64,000 bases of DNA from Candidatus Nomurabacteria bacterium. Lineage in GTDB: Bacteria > Patescibacteriota > Patescibacteriia > HK-STAS-PATE-3. The stretch lies in assembly GCA_023898465.1 (NCBI GenBank), contig CP060223.1, forward strand, positions 640,001 through 704,000, read 5' to 3'. Below the pieces are notes generated by a model. It saw nothing but the letters and a program-made list of their open reading frames with translations. It searched no databases and was not told the origin of the DNA. Positions 34,895 through 61,645 of this stretch are shown one piece after another (the stretch's first letter is position 1; every line of letters begins with the position of its first letter). The translations under genes and the position numbers were made by a program.

Positions 34895-35887
34895 TTAGAA
34901 TTGCGACAAGAAACGAAGATCGCCCTGATATGACATACGCACATCAGGCACTTGATAGTAATACATCATGAGGCGATCAATCCCCATGCCAAAAGCAAAG
35001 CCAGAGTACTCCCGAGGATCAACGCGCATATTCCGCAGCACCTCTGGATGAATCATGCCGCAGCCCAGCATCTCCATCCAACCTTTGCCGCCGTTCATCA
35101 GGATTTCCGCGCCTGGCTCCACAAATGGGAAAAAGCTTGGCTGCGCTCGGATTTCTACGTGTTCGCCAAAAAGTGTTTTGAAAAAAGTTTCCAAAGTACC
35201 GAGAAGGTCGCCAAAGGTCAGCCCTTTGGCAATCGCCATACCTTCGCAGTAATGATAGTTCGCCTCATGCGACGCATCAGTTGCCTCGTGACGGAACACA
35301 CGCCCAGGTGAAATGAAACGGATCGGCGGCTGGCGCTCCTCCATCACCCGCACCTGCATCGGAGAAATGTGCGTGCGCAGTAAAGGCTGGTTGGGTCCGC
35401 TCTTCAGCGCACCGTCAATGTAAAAAGTATCCCACTCATCCCGGGCTGGATGATCCTCAGGGATGCGGAGGAAGTCGAAGTTGTACTTGGCCAGCTCAAT
35501 CTCCGGGCCATGCAGCACCTCATAACCCATGCCCATGAAGACCTCCTGAATCCGCCGCTGCATATGACGGAGAGGATGAATTGAACCAAGAGGCAGTTCC
35601 GGCCCCATTAGGGTGAGATCAGCTGCTGCTTTCACGTTCCCCTGCTGCAAAAGCTGCTGCTGTTTCTGCAGCGCTTGTTCCAGCTCTTGCTTCACGCTAT
35701 TCCAAAGTTTGCCCAGCTGCGCGCGGTCGCTCTGCGGCTGGCTGGCAATCGCGGTTGATGCCTGAGCTAAAGCGCCTTTGCGGCCAAGCCAGGTATTGCG
35801 CCACTGCTCCAGTGACTTCGCATCACTCACCTGCTGCAGAGCAGCCATGGCATCACTACGTAGCTTATTGAGTTCGGATTCCATCAT
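34895..35887 (-). CDS. pheS: Phenylalanyl-tRNA synthetase alpha subunit. The start is uncertain (35923 in the ORF track, more probably 35887 or 35884).
   Basis: Class II motifs (FRHEATDASH, GMGIDRL). Confidence 0.9.
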   Translation of the reverse strand: MMESELNKLRSDAMAALQQVSDAKSLEQWRNTWLGRKGALAQASTAIASQPQSDRAQLGKLWNSVKQELEQALQKQQQLLQQGNVKAAADLTLMGPELPLGSIHPLRHMQRRIQEVFMGMGYEVLHGPEIELAKYNFDFLRIPEDHPARDEWDTFYIDGALKSGPNQPLLRTHISPMQVRVMEERQPPIRFISPGRVFRHEATDASHEANYHYCEGMAIAKGLTFGDLLGTLETFFKTLFGEHVEIRAQPSFFPFVEPGAEILMNGGKGWMEMLGCGMIHPEVLRNMRVDPREYSGFAFGMGIDRLMMYYYQVPDVRMSYQGDLRFLSQF

Positions 35888-36266
35888 GCGGCTTTTGTTC
35901 ACGGGCCAGAGCAAAGAATTCAATCAAAGAAAGGAGGATGAGATAGGCAGCCAGGTTCCACCAACGCAGGAATTCAGACACCTGCATAATGAGCGCGCCG
36001 CTCACCAGGAGACTGAAGAGCGTGCCCTGGCGAAAAGAAATCGCCACCTGCCGGTAGGCCACTGGTTCGCGCACAAAGCGCATCCGCAGACCAAAACCCA
36101 GCAAGGAGAAGCTGCCAATCAAGGCAAAAAACAAGGTTAAAAAAAACGCGGCATGCCCGATGAAGCCCGACACCTCCGGATCAATCGAGAAAAGGACCAG
36201 CGCCCAGAGCGCCCAACTCAGCACCGTGGCCACAGTCATAAGGAGCAGGTAACGTCGAATGCTCAC
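35865..36266 (-). CDS. Small four-TM membrane protein of unknown function (GTG start, no SD).
   Basis: Hydrophobic profile only. It overlaps the pheS 5' end by about 20 nt. Confidence 0.35.
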   Translation of the reverse strand: MSIRRYLLLMTVATVLSWALWALVLFSIDPEVSGFIGHAAFFLTLFFALIGSFSLLGFGLRMRFVREPVAYRQVAISFRQGTLFSLLVSGALIMQVSEFLRWWNLAAYLILLSLIEFFALAREQKPHDGIRTQ

Positions 36267-36491
36267 AAGGCAAAAATTCGGGAGTAATTAGCTAAAACAG
36301 CAGCCTGATTGTACCAGAAATCAGGTGCTGGGGCAAGATAGGATATTTAATTACTTTTTGTTTGGATAACGGGAAAAAAGGAAAATGAATGAATGTTCGT
36401 CGATCAAAATATCTTAGCACTCTTTCTTCAATCCATTCATTTATACCTAATATTTATTTTAGACACATATTATTGACCATACTTAACTCTT

Positions 36492-38819
36492 TCAGTCTTT
36501 CGTCGCATCATTGATAATTTGATAGTGATTTGGTGCGATTTTTTCCATCATCTCAAATAATTCATTCACAATCTTTTTTGTCTCTGGGACGAGCGCTGGA
36601 TTAAAACCGGATCCAGTAATATGTGATTGATCATTTGTAAATTTGTATATGGCGTCTAACTTTTGTTCATCATACCCATTTTGTTTTAACTCCTCTATCT
36701 TTTTATATGATTTTTTTCCATTTGGAACACTGAACATTAAAAACGTATCCCAAACCTTCCTTGCTATATTAGGAATAGGATATGCCTTGGCGATAGAATC
36801 ATCTTGTTCATCGCGAAGATATTTAAGTAATTTAAAGAGATAGTGGTATTCACTTTCATATTCACAAAGCTCTTTATCCATTCTATCAATGTAGGCACAA
36901 CGAATGTTCGAGGGAAAATAATTTTTTATCATAAAGTACCCGGTATTATCTCTCCCGGCACCCCTCCGCCAATTGATCAAAAGTTTCAAGAAATCAAAAC
37001 TATGAGTAAAAATAAACACTTGCCCGCCGTCTTTTACTGCACCCTTCAAAAAACTAAAGGCTTGATAAAGAGAATTTGAATCGAGGCTAGATACAGGATC
37101 GTCAATGAGGATGATTCCATTTTGAAGATCAAAACTCTGATCTTCAAGATGCACCACAAAATATATAAAGGCAATAGCGGTCTTTTCACCTTCGCTTAAA
37201 TATTTTGCAGCAGAGTCATCGCGCATGATATTGTACCCCGAAACAACCTCTTTTTCATCACCATTCTCGCTAATAACCGTTTCGATGCGCGGAACAAATT
37301 TTAGCTCTCTGTGCCCCAAATAAGTTGCTATTTTTTCATTGATGACTTCACAGGCCTTATGTTTCGATGAGATTTTCGCTGTATTTTCTTCAATTCTTTT
37401 ATTTATCTCCTCAATTTCTTTTGTTAATGTGTCTATGTTTTTTGTTAGATTAGAAATATCTGATTCTATTTTTTTTATATCGTCAAAAATTGTACTCAGA
37501 TAGTGGAATTTTATTTTTTCCGCAGCCCTCTGTTTAACGGTATCAAAATCCGCAGTTCGTTTTTTGTGTTCATCAATAATGGCATTTACGCTATCAACAA
37601 CTTTATATAGACCGATACTGCTCAATTTTTTATCATGCTCTACCCTTTCGGTCGTCTTACTTTTCTTACTTTTAATTTTATCCGCAAGATTTGTAATATC
37701 GTTGACAAATTGTTGTTTAGCTAGTTCAAAATTAACTTTTTCTGTCTCTAGGTTTGTTTGTAGGTCTTTATAGAATCTCGTTTTCTCGGGAATTGTTATA
37801 TTTTGAATAACGGAGTAAAGCTTCCTTAATTTTTCAACAAGACTATCCAGGTCTTCTTTTAATTTTTTGTCTGCATTATTAAAATAAAGTGCCAATTGCT
37901 CTACTCTATCATTTGGAATATTTTGTAAACAGTATTCGCAAACATCTGAAGAATGTCTTTTGTGTAATTTTACCCCCTCTTCTACCCATTCTGAAATATC
38001 ATTATTTTCTGCAAGTCGATTAATAATCTCGGACTCAACTTTTTTGTTTAATACGTTTTCTGCCTCGGTATTAATGGAATTTACAATTTCAGAAATTTCG
38101 TAATTGTTTTGATCTATTTCGACTTTCGGAATAAATATTCTATCCAAAAATGGTAGAGATTCCTGCTTTAAAGAGATTAATATATTATTGAGCTCTACTT
38201 CTTCTAGCTCCACCTTCCTATTAATTTTAGAAAAATCACTTTCTGCCTGCGGCCTACGATAATCTCTTAATGCATTTCCTCCGATCGCAGCTCCTATGGT
38301 TTTTGCAATTTCGGTGAATTGACCATCGCGACTTGCTTTAAGCCGCTTATGGTCTTTTTTATAATCTGCCAATCTTGCAATTTTTCCTCTTTGCTTCGGA
38401 TCAGATGAATCGCCGTTGAGTAAAGTTCTATCTTTTTTAATTTGAACAGCGAGATCTTTATTTTCTTCACCGAGTAAAATTGAAATTGAATTTGCACGGC
38501 CTTCTATAAGCTCAATATTTCTTTCTATATAGTCTCTGTTGAAAACTCTGACTTTTGGAGGGAATGTGTCGTTTTGATCGTACCTATTTCCATTCTCGTC
38601 TTCAATTTCATACTCCAGATTTTCAATACTCACCCCGCTTAAAGCATCAAATAAACGGGAGAGTGTTGTTTTGCCGCTTCCATTCCAACCATACACTAAA
38701 TTAAGTTGCTTGAAATTTGGCAAGGTTGATCTAGATCGTATTCCTGAACCCCAGACATAATTAGAAAAAACAAGTCCGAGATTTTTTATTTTATTGATTC
38801 TTTGGATAGCATTACCCAT
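36492..38819 (-). CDS. PrrC/RloC-like (AAA_13) Rad50-type ATPase with a coiled-coil CxxC zinc hook; candidate anticodon nuclease or abortive-infection defence protein.
   Basis: N-terminus NLGLVFSNYVWGS...LNLVYGWNGSGKTTLSRLF (Walker A). A 500-aa coiled-coil insert carries CEYC. The C-terminal head has the signature LSEGEK, Walker B IILIDDP, D-loop SSLD, H-loop FTHS and a roughly 150-aa C-terminal domain. The gene sits in a 25-30% GC island. Confidence 0.65.
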   Translation of the reverse strand: MGNAIQRINKIKNLGLVFSNYVWGSGIRSRSTLPNFKQLNLVYGWNGSGKTTLSRLFDALSGVSIENLEYEIEDENGNRYDQNDTFPPKVRVFNRDYIERNIELIEGRANSISILLGEENKDLAVQIKKDRTLLNGDSSDPKQRGKIARLADYKKDHKRLKASRDGQFTEIAKTIGAAIGGNALRDYRRPQAESDFSKINRKVELEEVELNNILISLKQESLPFLDRIFIPKVEIDQNNYEISEIVNSINTEAENVLNKKVESEIINRLAENNDISEWVEEGVKLHKRHSSDVCEYCLQNIPNDRVEQLALYFNNADKKLKEDLDSLVEKLRKLYSVIQNITIPEKTRFYKDLQTNLETEKVNFELAKQQFVNDITNLADKIKSKKSKTTERVEHDKKLSSIGLYKVVDSVNAIIDEHKKRTADFDTVKQRAAEKIKFHYLSTIFDDIKKIESDISNLTKNIDTLTKEIEEINKRIEENTAKISSKHKACEVINEKIATYLGHRELKFVPRIETVISENGDEKEVVSGYNIMRDDSAAKYLSEGEKTAIAFIYFVVHLEDQSFDLQNGIILIDDPVSSLDSNSLYQAFSFLKGAVKDGGQVFIFTHSFDFLKLLINWRRGAGRDNTGYFMIKNYFPSNIRCAYIDRMDKELCEYESEYHYLFKLLKYLRDEQDDSIAKAYPIPNIARKVWDTFLMFSVPNGKKSYKKIEELKQNGYDEQKLDAIYKFTNDQSHITGSGFNPALVPETKKIVNELFEMMEKIAPNHYQIINDATKD

Positions 38820-38919
38820 GACGGTAAAAAATTATATTATTGGCAAGTTCACCCCCACCATAAATCACATAGTAACCGATTACACCTTACACCCCTCCTT
38901 AACCTCTTACACCATTCAT

Positions 38920-38937
38920 CTCAAGAAAATATTAAGA
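38920..38937 (+). repeat. Copy 1 of the 18-bp tandem half-site motif (cTCAAGA-AAAT-ATTAAGA).
   Basis: Located 101-118 nt upstream of the RloC-like start. Confidence 0.6.
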
Positions 38938-39021
38938 CCACCCTCCCCTGCCAATAGCAAAAGCGGGTAGCCAACGGCACCCGCTCATTACTCCCTCCAT
39001 AGGGTATTTCACCAGAAACAG

Positions 39022-39039
39022 ATTAAGAAAATATTAAGA
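39022..39039 (+). repeat. Copy 2 of the motif (ATTAAGA-AAAT-ATTAAGA, perfect tandem half-sites).
   Basis: Located 3 nt beyond the stop of the 39042-39590 gene and 102 bp from copy 1. Confidence 0.6.
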
Positions 39040-39041
39040 GG

Positions 39042-39590
39042 CTAAATTGCCTGATAGGTATTTACAATCTGAGTTGCCTCTTGAAGCATATTATCAGCTC
39101 CCTGGCTCCTCGCCGGGATCGTCCATAGCAACATAGCATCACCACTTACCATGTAGTAATGATCAAAACCACCGTCAAAGCTATAATACGCAGTGCTTCC
39201 GTTTGAGAGTGTTATCGCCTGCCAAGTATCCGCTATTTCAGTGTTCGAGCTGATAGTCAGAGATAGTGCTGGCACTTCGCTTGCCTGCTCTGTAGATGTA
39301 GGGGTCGGTACGTTCTTTTCAGTATTCACTGACCAACCCTGAGGGTAACGCACTGAGAAATGATACTCGGGATTTTCTACTACCTTCCAAGCAGAAATAT
39401 CTACATTGCCTGACGACGGTGGTAATACTGACTGAGTGAAATTTTGTTGCACCGCCATGGATGACTCTAGTTCGTTAACCTGAGCACTTAACTCTTGCGC
39501 ATCATTTCGAGCAAGGCTATACATCCACGCTAAACTCACCGTGATAACAACAAGGACAATAAAGGCTATATTCTGGAATTTCTTGGACAT
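39042..39590 (-). CDS. Membrane-anchored secreted protein of unknown function.
   Basis: N-terminal TM anchor and an extracytoplasmic domain. The gene is flanked by inverted copies of the 18-bp motif. Confidence 0.5.
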   Translation of the reverse strand: MSKKFQNIAFIVLVVITVSLAWMYSLARNDAQELSAQVNELESSMAVQQNFTQSVLPPSSGNVDISAWKVVENPEYHFSVRYPQGWSVNTEKNVPTPTSTEQASEVPALSLTISSNTEIADTWQAITLSNGSTAYYSFDGGFDHYYMVSGDAMLLWTIPARSQGADNMLQEATQIVNTYQAI

Positions 39591-39656
39591 AGTTGTCTCC
39601 TGCTAATTAATAACAGGGCTATCTTAGCCCAGTAATATCTAATAAGCAAGTCCTAT

Positions 39657-39674
39657 TCTTAATATTTTCTTTAA
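39657..39674 (-). repeat. Copy 3 of the motif in inverted orientation (TTAAAGA-AAAT-ATTAAGA on the minus strand).
   Basis: Lies in the divergent intergenic region between 39590 (-) and 39755 (+). Confidence 0.6.
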
Positions 39675-39754
39675 CTACCATATGTAAATTGTCCCTGGGT
39701 GATAACCAGCCTGATTATCACATCTGTGAAGTTCTTTGAAGAAAAGGAAGCAAA

Positions 39755-40108
39755 ATGAGGTATCTTCTCTTCCTGATTGTCGCACTGGTGGCGCTTTCAG
39801 TTGCTAGCCCCGGAGTGAGCCTTGCGACGGACACAACGGTGGAGTACTCCTTCTACGGTCCGTCCGGAGACTACAAGATCGAACTCTTCGAGGTGGGGGC
39901 ACCCTATCCATCTCGACAAGACTACGTCTACGGCTATAGTGGCACTTTCACGTATCGCCGTACTTGGTCATCGATCGTCGCCTACCGATCCTACTTCATC
40001 CGCATCACTGACCTTAACTCGGGAGTCGCAAAGCAGACTGGATCCGTCTACGTTACCTACAATGGTGGGTACTATGCGTGGTCGACCTGCTACTGGAGCT
40101 CAATGTAA
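39755..40108 (+). CDS. Small secreted Tyr/Ser/Thr-rich protein with a signal peptide (117 aa).
   Basis: Sec signal peptide MRYLLFLIVALVALSVASPGVSLA. A strong terminator follows at 40135-40172. Confidence 0.5.
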   Translation: MRYLLFLIVALVALSVASPGVSLATDTTVEYSFYGPSGDYKIELFEVGAPYPSRQDYVYGYSGTFTYRRTWSSIVAYRSYFIRITDLNSGVAKQTGSVYVTYNGGYYAWSTCYWSSM

Positions 40109-40134
40109 AGACTTCGACTTCCTGAAGGGTTCTC

Positions 40135-40172
40135 AACTGCGTCATTTCCTCTAGGGAATGGCGCAGTTTTTT
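40135..40172 (+). terminator. Rho-independent terminator.
   Basis: AACTGCG...CGCAGTT with a nested CATTTCC/GGGAATG pairing, followed by T6. Confidence 0.55.
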
Positions 40173-40255
40173 ACTAGCAGCTCAAGTAGTGTTTTTTAAA
40201 TAGCAAAGCTAATTATTTCATATTTGCATACCACTGCATTACCCACAAATAAACG

Positions 40256-40284
40256 TTGACAAAAACGCCTCATAGGTTTATATT
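40256..40284 (+). promoter_or_regulatory. Near-consensus promoter (TTGACA, 17-nt spacer, TATATT).
   Basis: Direct match. It drives the 40343 ORF. Confidence 0.5.
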
Positions 40285-40342
40285 GCGGTGTTCTCTAGTG
40301 GCTCTTTTCACACGTGCAAATCAGACAGAGACGGAGGCCTCT

Positions 40343-40618
40343 ATGTTGAGATCAGCTGAGGAAGTCAGCGCCGGAATCCTCGAACGAATACCGGAGTCTG
40401 CTCCGGAACGAGAAATCCTGCGACAACGCTTCGATGAAATCATGCGCGAGATCGGACCCGATCAGAACAGCCTACCCTTCACCTCACCTGAGATGCTGCA
40501 GGGTTACGACGGCTTGAGAATTCAAGGCTTCTGCAACGCTTGCACAGAAACGATCGGCGATCCCAGCGGAAGCGAATGGAAACTCGCGGTAGCAAGCTAC
40601 CTCAGTTCTGGATCCTGA
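40343..40618 (+). CDS. Acidic 92-aa hypothetical protein.
   Basis: ATG with GGAGG at 5 nt. The promoter lies upstream. The TTG start at 40256 given by the ORF track coincides with the -35 element and is rejected. Confidence 0.35.
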   Translation: MLRSAEEVSAGILERIPESAPEREILRQRFDEIMREIGPDQNSLPFTSPEMLQGYDGLRIQGFCNACTETIGDPSGSEWKLAVASYLSSGS

Positions 40619-40645
40619 CCCCCAAACCCTTTCCTCGAGGTCGAC

Positions 40646-40840
40646 ATGACAACAAGGACCAGAGGACGGAGTCAGGTCAAAAGGCTCCTCACCCTCATAC
40701 AAGGTTCCTCATGCAGGGACCTAACCCCAGAAGATGATGGCTTCAATGCCCAAGTCCGGAGCCAGATGATGGAGCTCTGGGCAAAGGACCCCAAGCGTGC
40801 CAGACGACACATCATTCGGAGCAGGCCTGTCCGCTCTTGA
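40646..40840 (+). CDS. Basic 64-aa hypothetical protein, weak call.
   Basis: It follows the acidic ORF in the same transcript, bounded by the terminator at 40854-40890. No SD, and competing overlapping frames exist. Confidence 0.2.
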   Translation: MTTRTRGRSQVKRLLTLIQGSSCRDLTPEDDGFNAQVRSQMMELWAKDPKRARRHIIRSRPVRS

Positions 40841-40853
40841 ACCCATCCCTAAA

Positions 40854-40890
40854 GACTGTTGGATACGCTCCAGCAGTCTTTTTCTTTATT
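40854..40890. terminator. Terminator shared by the small-ORF unit and the convergent mgtE-like gene.
   Basis: GACTGTTGG-atacgct-CCAGCAGTC followed by TTTTTCTTTATT. Confidence 0.45.
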
Positions 40891-40906
40891 CAACTTTCTA
40901 AAAATC

Positions 40907-41461
40907 CTACAAAATAATTAGACTCGCCACTACTCCGTAAATGACCACGCTAAGCATGTCCTGCAACACCGTAGCGATCGGTCCGGTGCTCGCTGCTGGA
41001 TCTCGATGAGCTGATTGGAAGAGGTAGGCAATGATGAGTGCTACTACTGGGGCTGTGGTAATAGCAACACATGAAGCAATCGCCACGCTCAATGACAATT
41101 GCGCATCTCCCAACCAAAACCAAGTGATGAGTCCGGAGATAAGACCAAACACGATGCCAATAATTACACCGAGAGAAAACTCTTTGCGGAGATAAACCTT
41201 GAACTTGGCTTTCCCAGTTTTTAAATCACGGGAATAAATAGCCTCGGTTTGCGTCCCCACTGCATCAGAAATATACACAATGAAGGGCATGAAAAAGGCC
41301 ACCTGCACGCTATGGGCCAGCACTTCTTCAAAACGCGAAGTAACAAAAGAAATACCAATGCCTAACATGAGACCAAAAATAAGAGCTGGGGCTCGCAGGT
41401 TTAATAAAGTACCAATGCTCTCATGACCATCATCTGCGTATCGTATTTTTGGCGTTTGCAT
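40907..41461 (-). CDS. MgtE-family divalent-cation transporter, TM domain only (no N-terminal MgtE_N/CBS domains).
   Basis: FFMPFIVYISDAVGTQTEAIYSRDL and five TM helices typical of the MgtE C-terminal domain, at 184 aa. Confidence 0.65.
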   Translation of the reverse strand: MQTPKIRYADDGHESIGTLLNLRAPALIFGLMLGIGISFVTSRFEEVLAHSVQVAFFMPFIVYISDAVGTQTEAIYSRDLKTGKAKFKVYLRKEFSLGVIIGIVFGLISGLITWFWLGDAQLSLSVAIASCVAITTAPVVALIIAYLFQSAHRDPAASTGPIATVLQDMLSVVIYGVVASLIIL

Positions 41462-41792
41462 ATATTTTTTAAGAAATAGAGGGGGCGCTTTTTTCAGCTA
41501 CGTGAAACATGGAAGTTTACCTGTCAGAATAATACTCCTCTGCCACGCAAAAACAATATTGGACTGATCAAAATAATTGCTTTTCAATCAGGCTTCGACA
41601 AGTATCGAACAGGGTTGAGATGAGGACTTGAGAAGCTGATTGAATGCTATTCAGGTTCTCAACTTCGCCATCTCGACAAAGCCTCGATGACTGCGTTCGA
41701 ACACTGAATCACCTTTCAGTCTTCGAGCAAGGTCGAGAAGCTGATGTTAATTATATAACTCGGTTCCAACTACGCACGAACACTGAATAACG

Positions 41793-45028: not shown

Positions 45029-48000
45029 CTAGCGATTCAGCGGCATGCTGAAGCGTCGCTTATCGAACAACACAACGAATCCGCTGATTATAGCCATCAT
45101 GCCGAGGCCAAAGGCCGCCACATCACCCCAACCAGATCCAGTATCAGCCAAGGTTGATGCACCAAGGACCTGACCGCGCTTCACTACCACATTCTGGCTG
45201 GCGCGAACTTCGCCGTAATTATCTGCTACGGCTTTTGCTACGTTGAGGTAATTCCCAGACGCAGCATTATCAGCCACCTTCACCTCATAAGTGATAGTGC
45301 GAGTATCGTCAGTAAACATGCTGCCGAGAGTCCAGACACGTTCGGTCAAACCTGAATCAGCAAAGGTAAAGCCCTCAGGTAAGATATCTGTTACGCGCAC
45401 GTTTAAGGCAATGCCATCACCAGCGTTTGTTACCTTCAAGGTGTAGGTCAGATAATCACCTGGCTTTGCCTCGTTGGTGTTCACGCTCTTAGTAAGGAGT
45501 AAGAGCGGCTCAGTGCTGACACCCAGGACAGACCCAAGGCGTACCTCAACGGTTGCTTCATCAGCCACTGGATCGGTGTTATCTGCATCAGCTGTTGCTA
45601 CGTTGTCGTAGAAACCGGCCGCTTGGCTGGTGCTCACAATGACATCATAGGTGACTGTCATGCTTTCATTCGCTGCGAGATCACCGAGTGGGAAGCTGCG
45701 AACTGACAAGCCAGTGTCTACAAAGATGAAACCAGCTGGCAATTGATCAGTCATGACTACATTCACTGCAGTGGATTGGCCAATGTTCTTCACGACCACG
45801 GTGTAGGTTACTGTTGCACCCGGATTCACAAAGGTGTCGACATTGACCGACTTCACAATGCTCAGCTCAGGACTGAGAAGCTTGTTACCAAAGTTATTCG
45901 CATTGGAGACTAAGCCTGAAGTCATCACAATCGGACCAAGGGTGATAGGGCTGGAAGTCTGCTCCCAACCATCTTGCAATGTTTCGCTTAACCAGTAGGT
46001 ACCAGGACCAAGATCAGTGAAGCTGTAATTACCATCAGCGTCAGTTAAGGTATCAGCAATAATTGCACCCGGCTGACCATCCTCATCTTCCCAAAGGTTA
46101 ATCTGCCAATTGGCTAAGCCGCTTTCATCCTCATCCCAGGTGCCGTTGCCATTCACATCATGCCATTTTGCACCGTTGATTGATCCGAGTTGAAAGTTAC
46201 CAAAGTCATTCCCGGTCAAGGTAGTGTTTTCACCCAGCTCGAGCGGACCAATAACTACTGGCTCAGAAGTTTGCATCCAACCATCCACTAATGCCTCGTT
46301 CACCCAGTAGGTACCTGGCTCAAGATCAGTGAAGGCGTAGCTGCCATCGGCTGCAGTCTGCGTCGTGGCAATGATATTGCCCGGGCCGTCTTCACCATCA
46401 TCCCAGAGATTAATAGTCCAGCCCTGGATGCCTGGCTCGCCAACTTGTCGCACGCCATCGCCGTTCAAGTCATTCCACTTGGTACCGGCAATAGTAAGTG
46501 AGCGGGTGTTGCCAAACTCCACATAGGCTGGTTCGCCTTGCACTACTTCAACTTCTACACTGAGTGGCGTGGTGTTCATCCAAGCATCTGGCAGGACTTC
46601 ATTCACTTCGTAGGTACCAGTTGGCAAATTCGCAAAGGAGAAACTGCCATCGCTGGCACTCACTTTGCTTTGCCCATTGCTTAGCTGGATAGTGACACCT
46701 TCGATGCCTTCATCGCCGTCGTCACGTACACCATTCGCATTGTGGTCATAATATTTTACTCCGGTGATTTCTCCGGTGTTGCGGGTATTCTCGAGCACAC
46801 AAGTACCACCCTGGCGACCGGTGTCTAAAGTGATAACACCATTTGCATAACTACAGATTCCACTCGCGTTAGTTAAGGTGTAGAGGTTATCGTAGCTACC
46901 TGAAGTTTCAGTCACCATGTACTGCGTCATTGTCGGCACTGACACTGGAGCGCTTGCTTCAGTGAAATCACCCAAGCCTTCAACATGGAAGGTCCAATCC
47001 TGATCGGTCGATGGTCCGCCGCCTACGACTACTTTATCAAAGTCGATAGTAGTGAAGTCGCGCGCATTACAGAGCGTGATGGATGTTTCCTGATCTTCAA
47101 ATACTTCTACCGGCACAGGCAGGGTCGTGCCTTGCGGATTTGTACATGAGTAATCGGAGATATTTTTGTCATCATACCAACCAACAAAATGCCACCCAGG
47201 CAATTGCGTTTCAGTGATTTGATGAGGGCCAACACCGGTCTCGTTGGGCGTGCCCATATCTCGCATCTTTGTTTCAGTGATATCACTCCACTGGAAACCA
47301 AGTTCATTTGCTCGGACATTACCGCCCTCAAATATACCATCACCGTTTTCATCGACTTTCTTATTCACCGTCAGATCACCAGTCGGGCAATCAAGCGGAG
47401 CGGTCAATGAAGATGCGAAGAGAATAAAGCTCTCACCATTATCATCTTCTGGTGATTCGATTTGATAAGCAAAGTAGGTCGCGTTGGCTGGAATAGTTAC
47501 CGTGACTGTTGGATGATCCCACTCTGGACCTTCGTGCGAAGTGAGCAAGTTATGCAGCAGCTCTGTTGCGCCAGCTTGATCAACCAGGTTTGTTGGAACT
47601 GCACCAGTGGCACTCTTTACCCAGAGCGCATCACCGCGATTAGGGTTCGTGTGATCGCCGCCGCCCACACTCAAGGTAAGTGTTGCTTGTCGATCATAAT
47701 CTACTGGAGCAAAAGAATAACTGTACACTTCAGTGTCTGGACCTTTGGGGAAGTAGGGTCGATTCCAATATGCGGTATCCACTCCTCCCAACCAAGTCAC
47801 CAGAGAGGCATCAACATCTTCAGATGCATATACCACGTAAAGACTCGCTCCTAACATTGTGTAAGGACTGGAGTTCTCTACTGTATATGAATGCGTGCCG
47901 GTACTCACATAGCTGCTTACATTTGCGACGTACGCTACTGCATCCAGCGCCTCGCGATACTCAGTACCATTCACTGCATGTCCGTTAAACACAAAACTTG

Positions 48001-48736
48001 GATCGCTCTCTTCTTCATAGGCGCCCCAAATAAGATAGGCCGCTGCAATAGTACCTGGTACGTCGAGATTGCTTATCACACCACTTCCGTCATCTTCTAA
48101 TCCAACTCCTGCGCTGGCAACCGCATAGCCGGCAGTTTGACCCTGCGAACAAGCTGTTTGAATCGAGAAAAGGTTTTCTAAACCACCGGTAGTACGCCAG
48201 TTACCAAAATCAATCTCCGTGGTCTGACCCGCCGTAACATGTACGTTTTCTGTCACATTACCGGTTGTCACTTCCCAATCAGGAAGCTGGGTTTCTGTGA
48301 CGGTATAGTCTCCGGCATGCAGGTGAGGTACATAAAAACCGGATTCTCCACTCGTATCACCCTCGGCCACAATCTGGTCCTGCATATCACGCACCACAAA
48401 GTGCCAATCGCTCAGCCATGGGTCAGTGTCATGGGCGGTATTACGGATACCGTTACCATTATCGTCATAAAACTTCCGAATGCGGAGGTTGCCAAAGGTA
48501 AGCGCTGAATCGTCTACATTTGTACCCAGGCTAAGGCTTGTACCGCCCTCCTGAGAGTTATCCACAGCTTGAACTGGCAGCTCAGCTGCTTGGGCAGCCA
48601 GCACCGTTCCTAGGCCGGTAGTCTGGAGCACCAAACTAAAGACTGCCACGACGCTCAATAGATTGAATAAGCGCCGACGGACTCCCTTGCTAAGACCCCC
48701 CTGATATTCCCCCCTGAATAGTGATAACGTAGGCAT
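45029..48736 (-). CDS. Large (1235-aa) cell-surface protein with SdrD-B-like/Cna-B-type repeats and DUF11 repeats, and a C-terminal LAxTG sortase-type anchor.
   Basis: Signal peptide. Repeated DxDxDG calcium-type motifs (DLNGDGVRQVGE..., DVNGNGTWDEDE...). Two DUF11-like repeats. C-terminus LADTG, hydrophobic helix, KRR tail. AGAGGAG RBS. Confidence 0.8.
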   Translation of the reverse strand: MPTLSLFRGEYQGGLSKGVRRRLFNLLSVVAVFSLVLQTTGLGTVLAAQAAELPVQAVDNSQEGGTSLSLGTNVDDSALTFGNLRIRKFYDDNGNGIRNTAHDTDPWLSDWHFVVRDMQDQIVAEGDTSGESGFYVPHLHAGDYTVTETQLPDWEVTTGNVTENVHVTAGQTTEIDFGNWRTTGGLENLFSIQTACSQGQTAGYAVASAGVGLEDDGSGVISNLDVPGTIAAAYLIWGAYEEESDPSFVFNGHAVNGTEYREALDAVAYVANVSSYVSTGTHSYTVENSSPYTMLGASLYVVYASEDVDASLVTWLGGVDTAYWNRPYFPKGPDTEVYSYSFAPVDYDRQATLTLSVGGGDHTNPNRGDALWVKSATGAVPTNLVDQAGATELLHNLLTSHEGPEWDHPTVTVTIPANATYFAYQIESPEDDNGESFILFASSLTAPLDCPTGDLTVNKKVDENGDGIFEGGNVRANELGFQWSDITETKMRDMGTPNETGVGPHQITETQLPGWHFVGWYDDKNISDYSCTNPQGTTLPVPVEVFEDQETSITLCNARDFTTIDFDKVVVGGGPSTDQDWTFHVEGLGDFTEASAPVSVPTMTQYMVTETSGSYDNLYTLTNASGICSYANGVITLDTGRQGGTCVLENTRNTGEITGVKYYDHNANGVRDDGDEGIEGVTIQLSNGQSKVSASDGSFSFANLPTGTYEVNEVLPDAWMNTTPLSVEVEVVQGEPAYVEFGNTRSLTIAGTKWNDLNGDGVRQVGEPGIQGWTINLWDDGEDGPGNIIATTQTAADGSYAFTDLEPGTYWVNEALVDGWMQTSEPVVIGPLELGENTTLTGNDFGNFQLGSINGAKWHDVNGNGTWDEDESGLANWQINLWEDEDGQPGAIIADTLTDADGNYSFTDLGPGTYWLSETLQDGWEQTSSPITLGPIVMTSGLVSNANNFGNKLLSPELSIVKSVNVDTFVNPGATVTYTVVVKNIGQSTAVNVVMTDQLPAGFIFVDTGLSVRSFPLGDLAANESMTVTYDVIVSTSQAAGFYDNVATADADNTDPVADEATVEVRLGSVLGVSTEPLLLLTKSVNTNEAKPGDYLTYTLKVTNAGDGIALNVRVTDILPEGFTFADSGLTERVWTLGSMFTDDTRTITYEVKVADNAASGNYLNVAKAVADNYGEVRASQNVVVKRGQVLGASTLADTGSGWGDVAAFGLGMMAIISGFVVLFDKRRFSMPLNR

Positions 48737-55831: not shown

Positions 55832-57871
55832 TTATGCAGATGTCGACTTTGGACCAGAGGCGTCCTGATCGGCATCCATCTTGTTATGAATAAGATCTGA
55901 CTGAGTTAAGGTGTCCACATCAACGTACTTTGCCTGACGAGCAAAGGACTTAAAGCGACTACCGCCGCCTTCCATAAACTTCGGGAAAAATTCCACGTAT
56001 TGCAAACGGCCTGAGTGGATAAAAGAGCCGAGTGCGTTTATAGCAAGATTGAAAAGGTGTCCCCCAACCAAAATTCCGATAGCTACCACCCATCCGAAAA
56101 TCGGGATCATGTCTTTGAAAAGTAAGGCAACCATATTCACCACTACGGCAATGATGCCAGTGGAGAGTCCAAGTGCGAGCAAGCGAGAATATGACATGAC
56201 ATCAGAAAAATAACCGACAATGTTGTACAGACTGAGGATGCCCATTGGAATCTTCAGGAAAATATTTTTTTGGCGACGGCCCTGCGTCAAAACCAAAGTA
56301 GCAAGACCAGCGTACACCCAATACACACCAATTTGCCCTAAGATATCGCTCTGTATCGCCTGCCCGGCAACCAGCCAGAAAACTACACCGATTAAGAGGA
56401 AGAGCCAAGCGCCAGCATCAAAAGCTGCGTCCCAGGACTTCTGGCGAATTTGGTAATACAAATTAATACTCACACCAACAATTACCTGCACCACGCCAAT
56501 AGCGAGGGAGAAAACGAGTAGAGTGAGTGGATTGCTGACCGGATCGATAATCTTCAGGCTGAGTAAAAAGGATGTGATGGCATTCTTTGGTAGATCTTCC
56601 AAAACTAGTCCAAACCAACCACCAAAAGCTGCACCTACTACAAAGGTGGCAATACCAGCGTAGATAAGGAGTCGATAAAAGCCTTGCTTAGCTCGTGGCA
56701 ACTTAAAAAGTTTAATAGCGAGGAAAGAAAAACCAGCCAAAATAATGCCATAGCCGGCGTCTGACAAACACATGGCAAAATAGAAAATGAAAAACGGTGC
56801 CAGATAAGGTGTCGGGTCTAGTTCATTTGGCTTAGGTGCACCATAAATACTAGTAACTGATTCAAAAGGCTGCACTAAATTAGTATTTGTAAGCAGTACT
56901 GGAGGCTCTTCATCCTCTGCTAAAGCCAGCTCAAGGAGGGTAGCGCTCGTGCTCACCTTATGTAGAGCTTCTTCTAGCTCAACAAAACGAGAAGCTGGAA
57001 TGTATCCGCTCAACGCAAAGGTACGCTCTTGCGAAGCTGCGTTTAAAGAGGCGGCAACTTTATCACGTTGCCAAGTCAGGCCGTCAAAAATAATCTGTAG
57101 GTCGTGTACGTGCTGAGAAAGCTTTGTCGCTTCTGCTTGGGCAGTTTCCAATAAAGCAGCTAAGCGCAACATTTCCTTTTCTCGCTCAGTAATCGCCTCT
57201 TGGACAGTGCCCTGATGCTCAGGCAAGTTTACTTCTTGGAAATGATATTCCGTCAGCGCATTCTGCAACCAAGCCTCAGCTGAACGATGACTGACAATAT
57301 ATACCTTTACCTGCTTATCTGTACCAGGTAAGCGTTGTAGCTCAATTGCTTGATGCTCTTTGGTAATAGCTGCTTCAAGAAGCATGAGCTGCTCTTCAGT
57401 GAAAGTGCCGATGCGTACCTGTGCGCTCTCTAGTTTTTGATCTAAGCGCAGCGATAAATCTGACCAATGAGCGAGTAATAGCTGTTCTGCGCGCATCCGA
57501 TTGATATCAGACTGGTAGCTATTCATATCAGCTTCCAGTTTTTCTACCTGCTGGATGAAAGGCGCCAAATCAAATTCCTGCAATAACTTGGCCACTTCTT
57601 CATGTGAAACCGTAATTCCCTGGCTACCCATCGCAGCCAAACGCTCTCGAAAGCTCTGTTTTTGCTTCGGGGTATAGCGAGCAAGGAAATCCAAAGCAAA
57701 CTTTACACCAGCCAAGCGATACTCAATCTGGGATAATGCTTCATTTTGTTCCTCAGCTCCATCCATATGGATAAGCTGCATTTGGCCAAAATCATAGAGC
57801 AGTTCGAGCATTTTCTGCCGATCTGCCTGGAGACCGAGGACAAGGATTTTCTTTACCGGAGCTACTGCCAT
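55832..57871 (-). CDS. A/V-type ATPase subunit I (a).
   Basis: N-terminal soluble coiled-coil domain and a C-terminal seven-to-eight-TM domain. Confidence 0.85.
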   Translation of the reverse strand: MAVAPVKKILVLGLQADRQKMLELLYDFGQMQLIHMDGAEEQNEALSQIEYRLAGVKFALDFLARYTPKQKQSFRERLAAMGSQGITVSHEEVAKLLQEFDLAPFIQQVEKLEADMNSYQSDINRMRAEQLLLAHWSDLSLRLDQKLESAQVRIGTFTEEQLMLLEAAITKEHQAIELQRLPGTDKQVKVYIVSHRSAEAWLQNALTEYHFQEVNLPEHQGTVQEAITEREKEMLRLAALLETAQAEATKLSQHVHDLQIIFDGLTWQRDKVAASLNAASQERTFALSGYIPASRFVELEEALHKVSTSATLLELALAEDEEPPVLLTNTNLVQPFESVTSIYGAPKPNELDPTPYLAPFFIFYFAMCLSDAGYGIILAGFSFLAIKLFKLPRAKQGFYRLLIYAGIATFVVGAAFGGWFGLVLEDLPKNAITSFLLSLKIIDPVSNPLTLLVFSLAIGVVQVIVGVSINLYYQIRQKSWDAAFDAGAWLFLLIGVVFWLVAGQAIQSDILGQIGVYWVYAGLATLVLTQGRRQKNIFLKIPMGILSLYNIVGYFSDVMSYSRLLALGLSTGIIAVVVNMVALLFKDMIPIFGWVVAIGILVGGHLFNLAINALGSFIHSGRLQYVEFFPKFMEGGGSRFKSFARQAKYVDVDTLTQSDLIHNKMDADQDASGPKSTSA

Positions 57872-58201
57872 TTATGCGTTCTCCGTCCCCTCTTGTAATA
57901 GCTCTTTGATCACTGTATCGGCAGCACTTTCCATGCGCGCACCATCAATAGACTGCAAGGCGGCAATCCGATCAGCATAGGTTTTTTCTAAATCAGCAAT
58001 GACTTTCTTAGTCTCAGCTTGGATTTTGGCCTTTGTTTCCTCTACTTCTGGGGCTATTTCGGCCTGAATCTTACTCAAACGCTCTTCTTGCTGTTGTTGA
58101 ATCTGGCTTAATTCCTGCTGAGCTTTCGATTTTGCCTGGGCAATCTTGCTATCTAGCTCTTCTTCCAGGGCTTTGATCTGTTGAAGTGGATCCTGCGACA
58201 T
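57872..58201 (-). CDS. A/V-type ATPase stator stalk subunit (G/H-like).
   Basis: 109-aa Gln/Glu/Lys-rich coiled coil. It is the first gene of the operon. Confidence 0.6.
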   Translation of the reverse strand: MSQDPLQQIKALEEELDSKIAQAKSKAQQELSQIQQQQEERLSKIQAEIAPEVEETKAKIQAETKKVIADLEKTYADRIAALQSIDGARMESAADTVIKELLQEGTENA

Positions 58202-58502
58202 GGTTTTTTCCTAAATTTCGCCAAAAAATGAAAAAATCTCTATTTGAAACGCGTATAGGATACAGATTTCCTGAAAAACCGTCAACGGTGCCAAAAAAAT
58301 ACCCCTCTTGACTTTTCAACCAATTTCCCCATGCCCTGTAAATTGGAAATTTTACCCATGCTTTGCTCTTGCCGAAATAAAAAATCTGTGGCCCAATGTA
58401 AGAAGAAATACCAAACACTAAACGCTAAATCCTAAATATCCTGTATATTTATATATGTCATTATTTAGTATTTAGCTATTCAAATTTAGAACTTACTTCA
58501 CT

Positions 58503-59501
58503 ATGGAAATCCTTATCCTCGTTATCCTTGGCCTCCTCGTTATTACCGTTATTGCTGGAATTGCCCTTTTTACCCAGAGAATGCGGCAATTTGCCCAACC
58601 AAAAGATGAGCAATCCATGGCCATGCTGCATCAGTCTATCCAGGGCATGCAGAATCGTTTAGATGCACAAATCGGTGAAAGTACTCGGATTATCCAAAAT
58701 GTAACTGAGCGCCTGACACGTTTGGATGAAACAAATAAGCAGGTTATGGGCTTTGCGGACCAGCTCCAGCAACTGCAGGATATCCTAAAAAATCCGAAGC
58801 AACGCGGCGTCCTGGGTGAGTATTACCTCGAAACGGTATTGAAGAATGTGCTGCCACCTTCGGCTTTTAAACTGCAGTATGGATTTAAAAATGGTGAAAT
58901 TGTTGATGCTGCCGTGTTTGTGCAGGACAAAATCATTCCGATTGATGCGAAATTCTCGCTAGAAAATTACAATCGCATCGCGCAAGAGTCTGACCCGAAT
59001 CGAAAAGCTGACTTAGAAAAGCAATTTAAGCAGGATTTGAAGCTACGAATCGATGAAACCTCTAAGTATATTCGACCAAGCGAGAATACAATGGACTTTG
59101 CTTTCATGTTTATTCCGTCTGAGGGCATTTACTATGACTTGTTGGTCAATTCAGTTGGAACAGTAAAAGTATCGGCCCGCGATCTCATTGAATACGCTTT
59201 TAAAGAAAAGCACGTTATCATCGTCTCCCCCACCTCCTTCTTTGCCTACCTACAAACAGTGCTGCAGGGTTTGCGCGCGTTGCAGATTGAGGAATCAGCA
59301 AAAGAGATTCGCAAAAATGTTGAAAAGCTCGGTCGTCATCTCATGAACTACGAGGAATACTTACGAAAACTAGGCGGACATCTCAACACCACAGTGAATG
59401 CGTATAAATCTGCGTATAGCGAATTCCAAAAGGTAGATAAGGATGTCATGAAGATTGCGCCGGAAGTAGAGGCGGAGAAGTTGGAACAGACAGAAGAGTA
59501 A
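58503..59501 (+). CDS. rmuC: DNA recombination protein RmuC.
   Basis: N-terminal TM helix, coiled coil and RmuC domain (FAFMFIPSEGIYYDLL). Confidence 0.8.
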   Translation: MEILILVILGLLVITVIAGIALFTQRMRQFAQPKDEQSMAMLHQSIQGMQNRLDAQIGESTRIIQNVTERLTRLDETNKQVMGFADQLQQLQDILKNPKQRGVLGEYYLETVLKNVLPPSAFKLQYGFKNGEIVDAAVFVQDKIIPIDAKFSLENYNRIAQESDPNRKADLEKQFKQDLKLRIDETSKYIRPSENTMDFAFMFIPSEGIYYDLLVNSVGTVKVSARDLIEYAFKEKHVIIVSPTSFFAYLQTVLQGLRALQIEESAKEIRKNVEKLGRHLMNYEEYLRKLGGHLNTTVNAYKSAYSEFQKVDKDVMKIAPEVEAEKLEQTEE

Positions 59502-59510
59502 AATATACAC

Positions 59511-59560
59511 AAAACCCCCATAGTGCACCTTGGGGGACCTTTGTGTTTGTGTTGTTTTTT
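59511..59560. terminator. Bidirectional terminator after rmuC.
   Basis: CCCCCA-10 nt-TGGGGG followed by a T-rich run. The reverse strand also shows a U tract. Confidence 0.5.
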
Positions 59561-59841
59561 GCGCGCGCTGACTTGTTAACGATCACTCCGGAGTGCGGAG
59601 TCTAACTCATGCAGCATATCGCGGAGACTCGAGAGTACGCCACCAGGATCATGACTTTGGTGCGCCGATTTTGACTGGCGCCGTTTTCCTGGATGAGAAC
59701 CTTCTGCCTCGTGCAATGTAGTGGAATCAGTCGAGAGAGAAATCGGTCGACTTTCCTCCTTTCCTTGCCTTTAAAGAACGAAATGTTCCGACACATGTAT
59801 CGGAACCATCACTAGTATAGCGTATTTTGACCTTCTCGTAA

Positions 59842-59876
59842 AGACAAAATGTATGAACTTGTCATACATTTTGTCT
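59842..59876. repeat. Perfect 15-bp inverted repeat (AGACAAAATGTATGA-acttg-TCATACATTTTGTCT).
   Basis: Located 25 nt downstream of the stop of the 59901-61598 gene. No flanking U tract. Confidence 0.6.
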
Positions 59877-59900
59877 AACTTAAATTATGCTTAAACGCTA

Positions 59901-61598: not shown

Positions 61599-61645
61599 AT
61601 TCGTATAATAAGAAATTAACTATCTAAATAAAGTATATCATTCTC

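Follow-up and report, generated by a model that had tools for sequence, protein, structure and literature searches.

A horizontally acquired RloC-family gene, probably a stand-alone abortive-infection-type defence enzyme, in a Candidatus Nomurabacteria genome

RloC and PrrC are the described enzymes most similar to the protein encoded at the locus analysed here. Cleavage by RloC of Geobacillus kaustophilus (GkaRloC) excises the wobble nucleotide (Davidov & Kaufmann 2008, Klaiman et al. 2012). Anantharaman et al. (2013) assign the C-terminal domain of RloC to the HEPN superfamily, and its C-proximal motif is Arg-X3-Glu-X36-52-His, often with a Ser before the His (PMC2610378). Essential residues of EcoPrrC include H295, R320, N352 and H356, and the substitutions E324D and R349K each abolish its toxicity in yeast (PMC3025547). 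Phage protection by any RloC in a native host is still no more than an expectation in the RloC literature.

We analysed a window of 64,000 nucleotides from a Candidatus Nomurabacteria genome. It holds a single horizontally acquired RloC-family gene that we consider, with a probability of about 80%, to be a stand-alone abortive-infection-type defence enzyme. Stand-alone anti-phage suicide switches of the RloC type are already known, and we do not describe a new kind of system. As first annotated, one 775-aa gene occupies a low-GC island, with these features:

36362..38960, no strand assigned: low-GC single-gene island of ~2.6 kb, right-hand junction mapped, left-hand edge approximate
36492..38819, minus strand: RloC-family gene, 775 aa, a single intact ORF encoding an ABC/Rad50-like ATPase, a zinc-hook coiled coil and a HEPN nuclease (predicted)
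38926..38954, minus strand: promoter-like site upstream of the RloC-family gene, TTGGCA-17-TATTTT, from a consensus scan only, with a site count not above that in shuffles
36304..36336, minus strand: promoter-like site and hairpin of the resident TM-pheS-pheT operon, TTGCCC-17-TACAAT with TG, from a consensus scan

GC content across 36290-38900 is 34.3%, compared with a mean of 47.9% (sd 3.3%) for 2.6-kb segments, and is the minimum among all 2.6-kb stretches of the window. The initial annotation was thus right to call an AT-rich island, but its figure of 25-30% GC was too low, as 500-bp segments have 31-39%. The flanks have 52-55%. The GC3 of the RloC-family gene is 0.29 versus 0.51-0.64 in pheT, pheS, the TM gene and the UvrD-like gene, so the deviation sits at synonymous sites and not solely in amino-acid composition.

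The neighbours of the gene encode a TM protein, PheS, PheT, a 182-aa membrane-anchored protein, an MgtE-like protein and a UvrD-like protein. Although a scan of genome contigs with the PheS of the window found no close relative, relatives at the pheS locus were recovered through protein homologues and contig look-ups. The RloC-family gene is missing from the UvrD...TM-pheS-pheT locus in three of them, all of which keep the UvrD-like gene. Low GC, low GC3 and absence from the syntenic locus in relatives together support horizontal acquisition of the gene. One relative, L082 (DNA 88% identical, pheS 94% amino acid identity), fixes the right-hand junction, with homology ending at window position 36361; the sequence of the resident operon's promoter-like site is conserved in L082 and marks the conserved side of this junction. 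At the same junction L082 carries a different low-GC cargo, consisting of a 110-aa CxxC...CxxC protein and a 69-aa fragment, with no significant Pfam family for either. This points to a small integration hotspot beside pheST.

We placed the left edge by two features, the terminator-like hairpin that belongs to the 182-aa gene (38986-38961) on one side and the promoter-like site at 38954-38926 on the other; none of the relatives' contigs reaches across it. To map this border we turned to homologues of the 182-aa gene, of which there are only three proteins. Contig L091 is 99.8% identical over 423 bp and then continues, starting inside the 182-aa gene, as unrelated sequence of 60-67% GC; it was taken as a chimeric assembly and set aside. 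A further candidate guide, L092 (35% amino acid identity), is not syntenic. The tandem ATTAAGA motifs first described in the flanks are confirmed as a 15-nt motif, AAGAAAATATTAAGA, with three copies (38923+, 39025+, 39657-) against 0.16 expected. The copy at 38923-38937 is overlapped by the -10 hexamer of the promoter-like site upstream of the RloC-family gene. The window contains no tRNA genes, a search for direct repeats and att-like sites flanking the island was negative, and an Rfam scan of 35800-40300 gave no credible match. A 13-nt inverted pair (36280-36292 and 38983-38995) was rejected as chance, because one arm lies in sequence shared with L082 yet is unconserved there, and the other overlaps the terminator-like stem.

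Profile searches support placing the protein in the RloC family, with matches over nearly its full length. The best full-length match is the PADLOC PDC-S06 model PDLC04894 (E=6e-224, 743.8 bits, residues 5-772 of 775), and 8 of the 9 PDC-S06 models in the PADLOC library also match. Pfam AAA_13, the family suggested by the initial annotation, matches with E=7e-118 (395.7 bits against a cut-off of 36; residues 31-755 on model positions 10-712 of 713). PDC-S06 appears to cover the AAA_13/RloC-like family. The PADLOC PrrC HMM gives a partial match (39 bits, E=1e-10) over residues 495-760, running through the C-terminal domain, which indicates homology and not membership. Among solved structures, searches by sequence and profile found no PrrC/RloC relative, only a Rad50 head (E~1e-4). 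Homologues at 57-62% identity carry the JGI name 'wobble nucleotide-excising tRNase' (the name of COG4694), and one at 47% bears the name 'Translation-disabling ACNase RloC'.

Phyletic spread is patchy, with homologues in Verrucomicrobiota (59% identity), Acidobacteriaceae (55%), Saccharibacteria (51%), Nitrospirota (46%) and many Proteobacteria (25-29%). Close homologues lie in defence and mobile-element contexts. A 73% homologue overlaps the end of an HTH / C5-methylase / HpaII-endonuclease / Vsr operon, another adjoins a HEPN_AbiV gene, another sits amid integrase, resolvase and transposase genes, and another follows an EcoRI-type methylase and GmrSD in a T4SS element. Plasmid records with relatives number 237, including 157 conjugative ones, and prophages carry relatives annotated 'translation-disabling ACNase'. 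Together with the family matches, these contexts support the earlier view that the gene is the best defence candidate in the window. Around the gene itself we found no R-M, hsd, HNH or other partner genes within ±5 kb, in agreement with what had been read from the flanks.

The ATPase motifs quoted by the initial annotation (Walker A, LSEGEK, IILIDDP, SSLD and FTHS) are all present in the translation, and conservation was counted in 116 close and 72 distant homologues:

38664..38690, minus strand: Walker A / P-loop, G44-W-N-G-S-G-K50-T-T52, with G49, K50 and T51 invariant (116/116)
37317..38384, minus strand: helical (coiled-coil) insert, residues 146-501, from AlphaFold secondary structure, splitting the ATPase head
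37929..37940, minus strand: CxxC zinc-hook motif (predicted), C294-E-Y-C297, minus-strand DNA TGC GAA TAC TGT
37182..37199, minus strand: ABC signature, L541-S-E-G-E-K546, read directly, with S542 invariant
37080..37115, minus strand: Walker B and D-loop, I569-ILIDDP-VSSL-D580, with D573, D574 and D580 invariant (116/116)
37002..37004, minus strand: H-loop (switch) histidine H606, in FTHS, invariant (116/116)

The N-terminal motif reads NLGLVFSNYVW...LNLVYGWNGSGKTTLSR and includes Walker A (G44-T52); IILIDDP occupies residues 569-575 and SSLD residues 577-580. In the AlphaFold model of the 775-aa protein (pLDDT 88.5), residues 1-145 and 505-646 form a two-lobed ABC/Rad50-like head, whose top Foldseek hits are the coiled-coil-bearing heads of Rad50, RecN and SMC. 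The insert between the lobes comprises ~355 aa, not the roughly 500 aa first estimated. The CEYC motif lies in a loop between helices 273-289 and 303-312, and both cysteines are invariant (116/116 close, 72/72 distant homologues), so that the zinc hook read from the sequence alone is borne out as a prediction. The RloC architecture proposed by the initial annotation is therefore sustained by the full-length AAA_13 and PDC-S06 matches, the invariant hook and the Rad50/RecN/SMC-like predicted head.

The C-terminal region carries the putative nuclease:

36504..36875, minus strand: all-helical HEPN-fold nuclease domain, residues 649-772, HEPN fold in the predicted model
36747..36761, minus strand: putative catalytic motif part 1, R687-K-V-W-D691, spacing-aligned with EcoPrrC R320...E324 and GkaRloC R692...E696
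36621..36644, minus strand: putative catalytic motif part 2, K726-F-T-N729-D-Q-S732-H733, spacing-aligned with EcoPrrC R349, N352 and H356

The initial annotation saw no R..E..H triad that it could align with confidence in this domain, and suggested that the effector may be divergent or novel; the first statement is wrong, and the second is not supported. R687, D/E691, N729, S732 and H733 form a conserved RloC/PrrC-type motif, the structure prediction proposed for this region returned a HEPN fold, and the only departures, Glu to Asp at 691 and Arg to Lys at 726, are conservative. In R687-x3-D691-x41-S732-H733, the spacing, Arg, Ser and His fit the RloC motif, with Asp versus Glu as the acidic residue, and H659 is by spacing also the counterpart of the essential PrrC residue H295. 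These correspondences to GkaRloC and EcoPrrC were drawn from the spacing of the motifs, from residue numbers in the literature and from the PADLOC PrrC HMM match. A search of 1.84 billion representative proteins found the domain almost exclusively as the C-terminal part of ~730-790-aa proteins with this same architecture. We conclude that the predicted active site is a mild variant (Asp691, Lys726) of the RloC/PrrC type.

This variation gives rise to the main alternative, that the protein is an RloC-like ATPase-HEPN enzyme whose substrate or chemistry is unlike that of GkaRloC, or which has lost catalysis and serves as a sensor or scaffold only. Its basis is that Asp691 and Lys726 of the clade replace the Glu and Arg on which PrrC strictly depends. 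Asp occupies position 691 in 79/116 close homologues (Glu in 37/116) and Lys occupies position 726 in 111/116, whereas distant members mostly have Glu (59/72; Asp in 13/72) and Arg (45/72). Identity to proteobacterial RloC-like proteins is moreover only 25-29%. Because the equivalent exchanges each inactivate EcoPrrC, nuclease activity of the window protein is suggested by conservation but not guaranteed. Conversely, R687, N729 and H733 are invariant, S732 is found in 115/116, and the ATPase motifs, C294/C297, R687, N729 and H733 are all retained in the 72 distant homologues. Asp and Glu interchange even among close relatives (ARKVWDTF, ARKVWETF, ARKVLETF, ARKVLDTF), and Asp and Lys turn up sporadically at these positions in distant clades. 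Free exchange of Asp and Glu at position 691, which stays acidic throughout, favours an equivalent catalytic role under selection, and the predicted model shows a normal HEPN fold. We thus regard an altered or lost nuclease as unlikely. A related idea, to which we give similarly little credence, is that the protein represents a distinct RloC clade (best model PDLC04894) with an active site of Arg-x3-Asp and Lys-x2-Asn-x3-His, which might differ in its RNA target or in its chemistry, since both exchanges kill EcoPrrC.

Two other explanations turn on the ATPase and are far less probable still. One makes the protein the ATPase subunit of a multi-gene defence system (Lamassu LmuB, Septu/retron PtuA, PARIS AriA) whose partner is elsewhere or lost, and would account for weaker PADLOC matches to LmuB (1e-19), AriA (6e-9) and AbiLi and for Foldseek matches to retron-complex chains, the PtuA-containing Ec78 complex and AriA/PARIS heads. 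These PADLOC matches, however, are ~200 orders of magnitude weaker than that to PDC-S06 and cover the ATPase part only, while the protein has an effector domain of its own. No LmuA, PtuB/HNH or AriB-like genes lie within 5 kb, and the neighbourhoods of four close homologues share no common partner, one of the four being operonic with a type II R-M system. The other explanation, a host housekeeping Rad50/SbcC/RecN-like repair ATPase with low GC caused by a Lys/Glu-rich coiled coil, we consider just as improbable. It draws on the top structural matches, on weak NCBIfam matches to an archaeal SMC-related protein and RecF, and on the UvrD/PD-(D/E)XK helicase-nuclease gene 3 kb away. Yet the NCBIfam matches all fall far below curated cut-offs, no Mre11/SbcD gene is nearby, and Rad50 and SbcC have no HEPN nuclease domain. 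The low GC3 and the absence of the gene from relatives that keep the UvrD-like gene also speak against a housekeeping role.

For the preferred reading, a stand-alone abortive-infection-type enzyme, GkaRloC provides the model of action. By this analogy, the protein would dimerize through its ATPase heads, and zinc-hook joints would hold the nuclease silent. The internal switch would be released when the protein binds DNA ends, left by phage-inflicted or damage-related breaks, and hydrolyses ATP. The HEPN domain would then cleave tRNA anticodon loops by metal-independent transesterification, translation would halt and the infection would be aborted. Since no partner gene is needed, the gene can travel alone, and in this Candidatus Nomurabacteria genome it sits just upstream of the TM-pheS-pheT operon as a single-gene cassette equipped with its own promoter-like site.

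The locus therefore offers a cleanly delimited RloC-type cassette, recently inserted into a very small genome (~1.08 Mb contig). On the less probable reading of a distinct PDLC04894-type clade, that clade is common in uncultivated phyla, many Patescibacteria/CPR among them, and would be joined by few other abortive-infection systems at work in episymbiont genomes of ~1 Mb. Asp and Lys are the natural residues in a large RloC clade at the positions where Glu and Arg proved irreplaceable when PrrC was mutagenized, and this variation poses a simple structure-function question for HEPN anticodon nucleases.

Compared with known systems, the protein resembles Rad50, SbcC and RecN in its predicted head fold, antiparallel helical insert and CxxC hook, but differs in its much shorter insert, its lack of an Mre11/SbcD partner, its added HEPN domain and its status as an accessory rather than a core gene. 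The APECO1_4465 and ERFG_01251 groups likewise combine an ABC ATPase with a C-terminal HEPN domain and occur in mobile islands and prophages (Anantharaman et al. 2013); they are described as distinct from the RloC/PrrC HEPN version, whereas the window protein has the RloC-type hook and motifs. PDC-S06, to which the protein corresponds as best full-length HMM match and as a single-gene system, is a bioinformatic PADLOC candidate label without a described mechanism, listed or predicted in the literature with no report of a test.

PrrC shares homologous ABC motifs and a HEPN-type nuclease, and its H295, R320, N352 and H356 correspond to H659, R687, N729 and H733; its N321, E324 and R349 positions are K, D and K in the window protein. 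However, PrrC has ~396 aa without a coiled-coil/zinc-hook insert, compared with 775 aa, a 355-aa insert and a CxxC motif here. PrrC nicks tRNA-Lys without excising the wobble base and is always found inside a type Ic hsd locus that silences it, whereas the window gene has no R-M neighbour.

The closest counterpart is RloC. The window protein differs from it in having Asp for Glu at the triad acid and, by spacing, Lys for Arg at the PrrC-R349-equivalent position, and from GkaRloC in its Patescibacteria/CPR host. As in GkaRloC, a coiled coil with a CxxC hook at its centre interrupts the ABC head, and the predicted C-terminal anticodon-nuclease domain carries Arg-x3-acid-x41-Ser-His. At 775 aa (GkaRloC, 804 aa) it falls inside the RloC range of 658-897 aa (PMC2610378), and its landmarks K50, C294, D573, R687, D691 and H733 are colinear with K44, C291, D572, R692, E696 and H737 of GkaRloC. 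As in RloC, for which R-M linkage is rare, the gene stands alone and spreads by lateral transfer.

We find that the low-GC island carries, on the minus strand, what is very probably a stand-alone defence gene of the RloC family (probability about 0.8). The gene is a single intact open reading frame, and all motifs quoted in the initial annotation were found in its translation. Domain boundaries come from an AlphaFold2 model built with a 116-sequence alignment (mean pLDDT 88.5, pTM 0.69).

36492..38819, minus strand: RloC-like gene, 775 aa (translation of the window)
N-terminus: NLGLVFSNYVW...LNLVYGWNGSGKTTLSR, read in the translation
Residues 294-297: CEYC
Residues 541-546: signature LSEGEK
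Residues 569-575: Walker B, IILIDDP
Residues 577-580: D-loop, SSLD
FTHS, containing H606
Residues 1-145: N-lobe, mixed alpha/beta (model)
Residues 146-501: helical insert (model)
Between helices 273-289 and 303-312: CxxC loop, pLDDT down to 56-70 (model)
Residues 505-646: head C-lobe (model)
Residues 649-772: C-domain, all-helical (model)

Pfam AAA_13 matches the protein end-to-end (E = 7e-118; residues 31-755, model positions 10-712/713), as had been anticipated. The best PADLOC model is PDLC04894, the single-gene candidate system PDC-S06 (E = 6e-224, residues 5-772); matches to LmuB, AriA and PrrC are far weaker. Hundreds of full-length homologues share 43-73% identity. Many carry the JGI name 'wobble nucleotide-excising tRNase', and one from Parcubacteria is named 'Translation-disabling ACNase RloC'. 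The window comes from a Candidatus Nomurabacteria MAG, where NCBI lists the identical protein, on a 1,082,586-bp contig, as 'AAA family ATPase'.

Other identities were weighed against this assignment. PrrC itself is matched by PADLOC at E = 1e-10 over residues 495-760 and was rejected: the protein has an insert, and there is no hsd locus. A housekeeping Rad50 or SbcC was likewise rejected. The top Foldseek matches in the PDB are the heads of Rad50 (7zr1), RecN (4ad8), cohesin, condensin and Smc5/6, and NCBIfam matches to SMC, RecF and ABC models all fall below threshold. Next in the Foldseek ranking come retron-complex chains, the PtuA-containing Ec78 complex and AriA/PARIS. With its own effector and no adjacent partner gene, the protein is nevertheless not an ATPase of Lamassu, Septu or PARIS. 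In the window, the neighbours have no Pfam or PADLOC defence match, except that the syntenic helicase resembles UvrD/GajB in a generic way. No solved structure of a PrrC/RloC relative was detected by sequence or profile search.

Two structural expectations had to be revised. The modelled insert spans about 355 aa, where a coiled coil of roughly 500 aa had been proposed, and the effector, suspected to be divergent or novel, is not novel. Searched alone against 1.84 billion representative proteins, the C-domain matched 668 clusters, almost always at the C-terminus of proteins of ~730-790 aa with the same architecture. The initial annotation could align no R..E..H triad to PrrC with confidence. 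The residues H295, R320, N321, E324, R349, N352 and H356 are essential in PrrC, and all of these except N321 are reported as conserved in RloC (PMC3025547). By spacing they correspond to H659, R687, K688, D691, K726, N729 and H733 of the window protein, so the catalytic motif is present, with Asp at its acidic position.

The two departures from the PrrC/RloC site are conservative: Glu to Asp at 691 and Arg to Lys at 726. They deserve mention, since either E324D or R349K is enough to abolish the toxicity of E. coli PrrC (PMC3025547). Of 116 homologues, 79 have D at position 691 and 37 have E. Residues G49, K50, T51, C294, C297, S542, D573, D574, D580 and H606, together with R687, K688, N729 and H733 of the C-domain, are invariant (S732 in 115/116). 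We separately aligned 72 distant family members from GTDB genomes (25-59% identity). Both hook cysteines, R687, S732 and H733 are universal among them; at 691, 59 carry E and 13 carry D, and at 726, 45 carry R and 22 carry K. This natural interchange of D with E and K with R, amid invariant residues, argues for a functional site in the predicted nuclease. The Asp/Lys clade is often met in CPR and further uncultivated phyla; that it cleaves another target or uses another chemistry is improbable.

The drop in GC content is real and smaller than the 25-30% first described: 500-bp windows across ~36250-38750 range from 0.31 to 0.39, versus 0.50-0.57 immediately to the left. At 34.3% GC, against a mean of 47.9% (sd 3.3%) for 2.6-kb windows, 36290-38900 is the lowest-GC stretch of that size in the window. 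The deviation sits at synonymous sites: GC3 is 0.29 in the RloC-like gene versus 0.51-0.64 in pheT, pheS, the small TM gene and the UvrD-like gene. At 13/14 homologue loci examined the gene also lies below its flanks in GC, by 1-12 points, and the closest homologues have 34-36% GC inside contigs of 38-40%. This comparison is consistent with recent arrival here from a low-GC donor. A TATAAT hexamer lies ~14 nt before the start (ATG at 38819), and 38820-38850 holds no recognisable Shine-Dalgarno; the adjacent 182-aa gene carries AGGAG. These features would fit foreign origin and low expression, or a near-leaderless transcript. Low expression of rloC genes was noted in 2008 (PMC2610378).

Comparison of the pheS locus with that of three relatives showed that the gene is absent there in all of them. 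Relatives with PheS 61-64% identical keep the order UvrD/PD-(D/E)XK helicase ... small TM protein-pheS-pheT-gyrB, lack an AAA_13 gene and have other small genes between helicase and TM gene. The closest relative available, a Logan contig (L082, SRR17818317; PheS 94%, TM protein 96%, DNA 88% identical), aligns only up to 36361, which lies immediately upstream of the TM-pheST operon's promoter-like site. Past the junction, its positions 1-608 hold different cargo, also low in GC (39.5%): the 3' end of one gene and a 110-aa protein containing two CxxC pairs (CxxC...CxxC), which has only a sub-threshold STEEP1/Yippee-like match. The junction is thus a small hotspot whose cargo differs between strains. 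The left border is approximate: we place it near 38960, with the 182-aa gene's terminator-like hairpin on one side and the promoter-like site 38954-38926 on the other. No tRNA gene, direct repeats or recombinase marking the insert were found.

The entire stretch 36267-41790, from the UvrD-like gene to the TM-pheS operon, varies between relatives. It contains an MgtE-TM-domain-only protein (184 aa), ORFans of 91, 117 and 182 aa, and the RloC-like gene; outside the island it has 41-48% GC, also under core genes. The 182-aa protein has just two relatives among 5.8 billion non-redundant proteins searched. A metagenome scaffold (ENA ERZ28655615 scaffold_94739), 99.8% identical to 39325-39747, switches abruptly at 423/424 inside this gene to unrelated sequence of 60-67% GC and is probably a chimeric assembly. 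A 15-nt motif, AAGAAAATATTAAGA, occurs in three exact copies (13-nt core: 3 found versus 0.16 expected):

38923-38937, plus strand: copy between the RloC-like and 182-aa genes
39025-39039, plus strand: copy between the same genes
39657-39671, minus strand: inverted copy upstream of the 182-aa gene

The copies and I1 (43-nt arms, 72% complementary) together bracket the 182-aa gene, and two of the copies share sequence with the -10 hexamer of a promoter-like site. The motif may be an operator/promoter element or the remnant of a small mobile unit.

Elsewhere in the window, GC content dips a second time, less strongly, across 56000-62000 (42-46%):

55832-57871, minus strand: V_ATPase_I-like membrane protein, 679 aa
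58503-59501, plus strand: RmuC-family gene, weak PADLOC 'RTasRmuC' match
59901-61598, minus strand: 565-aa ORF, no Pfam match

Adjoining the UvrD-like gene, at 45029-48736 on the minus strand, is a 1235-aa protein whose repeat domains are of the CLIPPER, SdrD_B and SpaA types. It is large and surface- or adhesin-like, of a kind typical of episymbiotic CPR, and is unrelated to the RloC-like gene finding.

Homologues occur in defence and mobile contexts. The gene of a 73%-identical homologue (contig L086, 1632-7330) has an 8-bp overlap with the end of an operon of HTH-controller, RadC-C5-methylase, HpaII-type endonuclease and Vsr, which is a linkage to type II restriction-modification and very-short-patch repair. 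The linkage reported for rloC in 2008 was to type I and type III loci only (PMC2610378). An AbiV-type HEPN gene follows a 62% homologue; a 61% homologue, inside a T4SS element, is preceded by an EcoRI-type methylase and GmrSD; and a 58% homologue has integrase, resolvase and transposase genes around it. The family is represented in 237 plasmid records (157/237 conjugative) and in a few prophages, there with the annotation 'translation-disabling ACNase'. Enterobacter phage ENT4 (PV844615.1, 1013-3241) has an intact, unannotated RloC-like ORF of 742 aa, whose neighbour on the opposite strand is a large ORF of 679 aa. With a CPFC hook, PNIMRNILEYYF ... FYRYINRGSH, and canonical Arg/Asn/Glu and Arg/Asn/His, it is a phage-borne family member. 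These contexts have no partner gene in common.

The domain architecture, conserved motifs, folds, accessory status and mobile/defence neighbourhoods of the RloC-like gene were computed; the mechanism is modelled on the biochemistry of Geobacillus kaustophilus RloC (GkaRloC). The protein would form a dimer with head-to-tail ATPases, its nuclease kept silent by zinc-hook joints and switched on by DNA ends and ATP hydrolysis. The HEPN domain would then cut tRNAs in the anticodon loop, producing 2',3'-cyclic phosphate ends and removing the wobble nucleotide, and translation shutdown would abort the infection. That the exact tRNA chemistry follows GkaRloC is only somewhat favoured, because of the variant Asp/Lys site in this clade.

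RloC was defined by PrrC-like ABC motifs, a CxxC-bearing coiled-coil/zinc-hook insert, a C-proximal Arg-X3-Glu-X36-52-His with the His often preceded by Ser, and a size of 658-897 aa (PMC2610378). The window protein has every feature tested except the literal Glu, and probably works like RloC. GkaRloC (804 aa) has landmarks C291, R692, E696 and H737 (PMC2610378), and K44 and D572 from the 2012 RloC paper; K44/C291/D572/R692/E696/H737 correspond to K50/C294/D573/R687/D691/H733, and the matching numbering makes the two proteins colinear. This kind of system is already known: homologues are publicly annotated as RloC, and PADLOC already flags the family.
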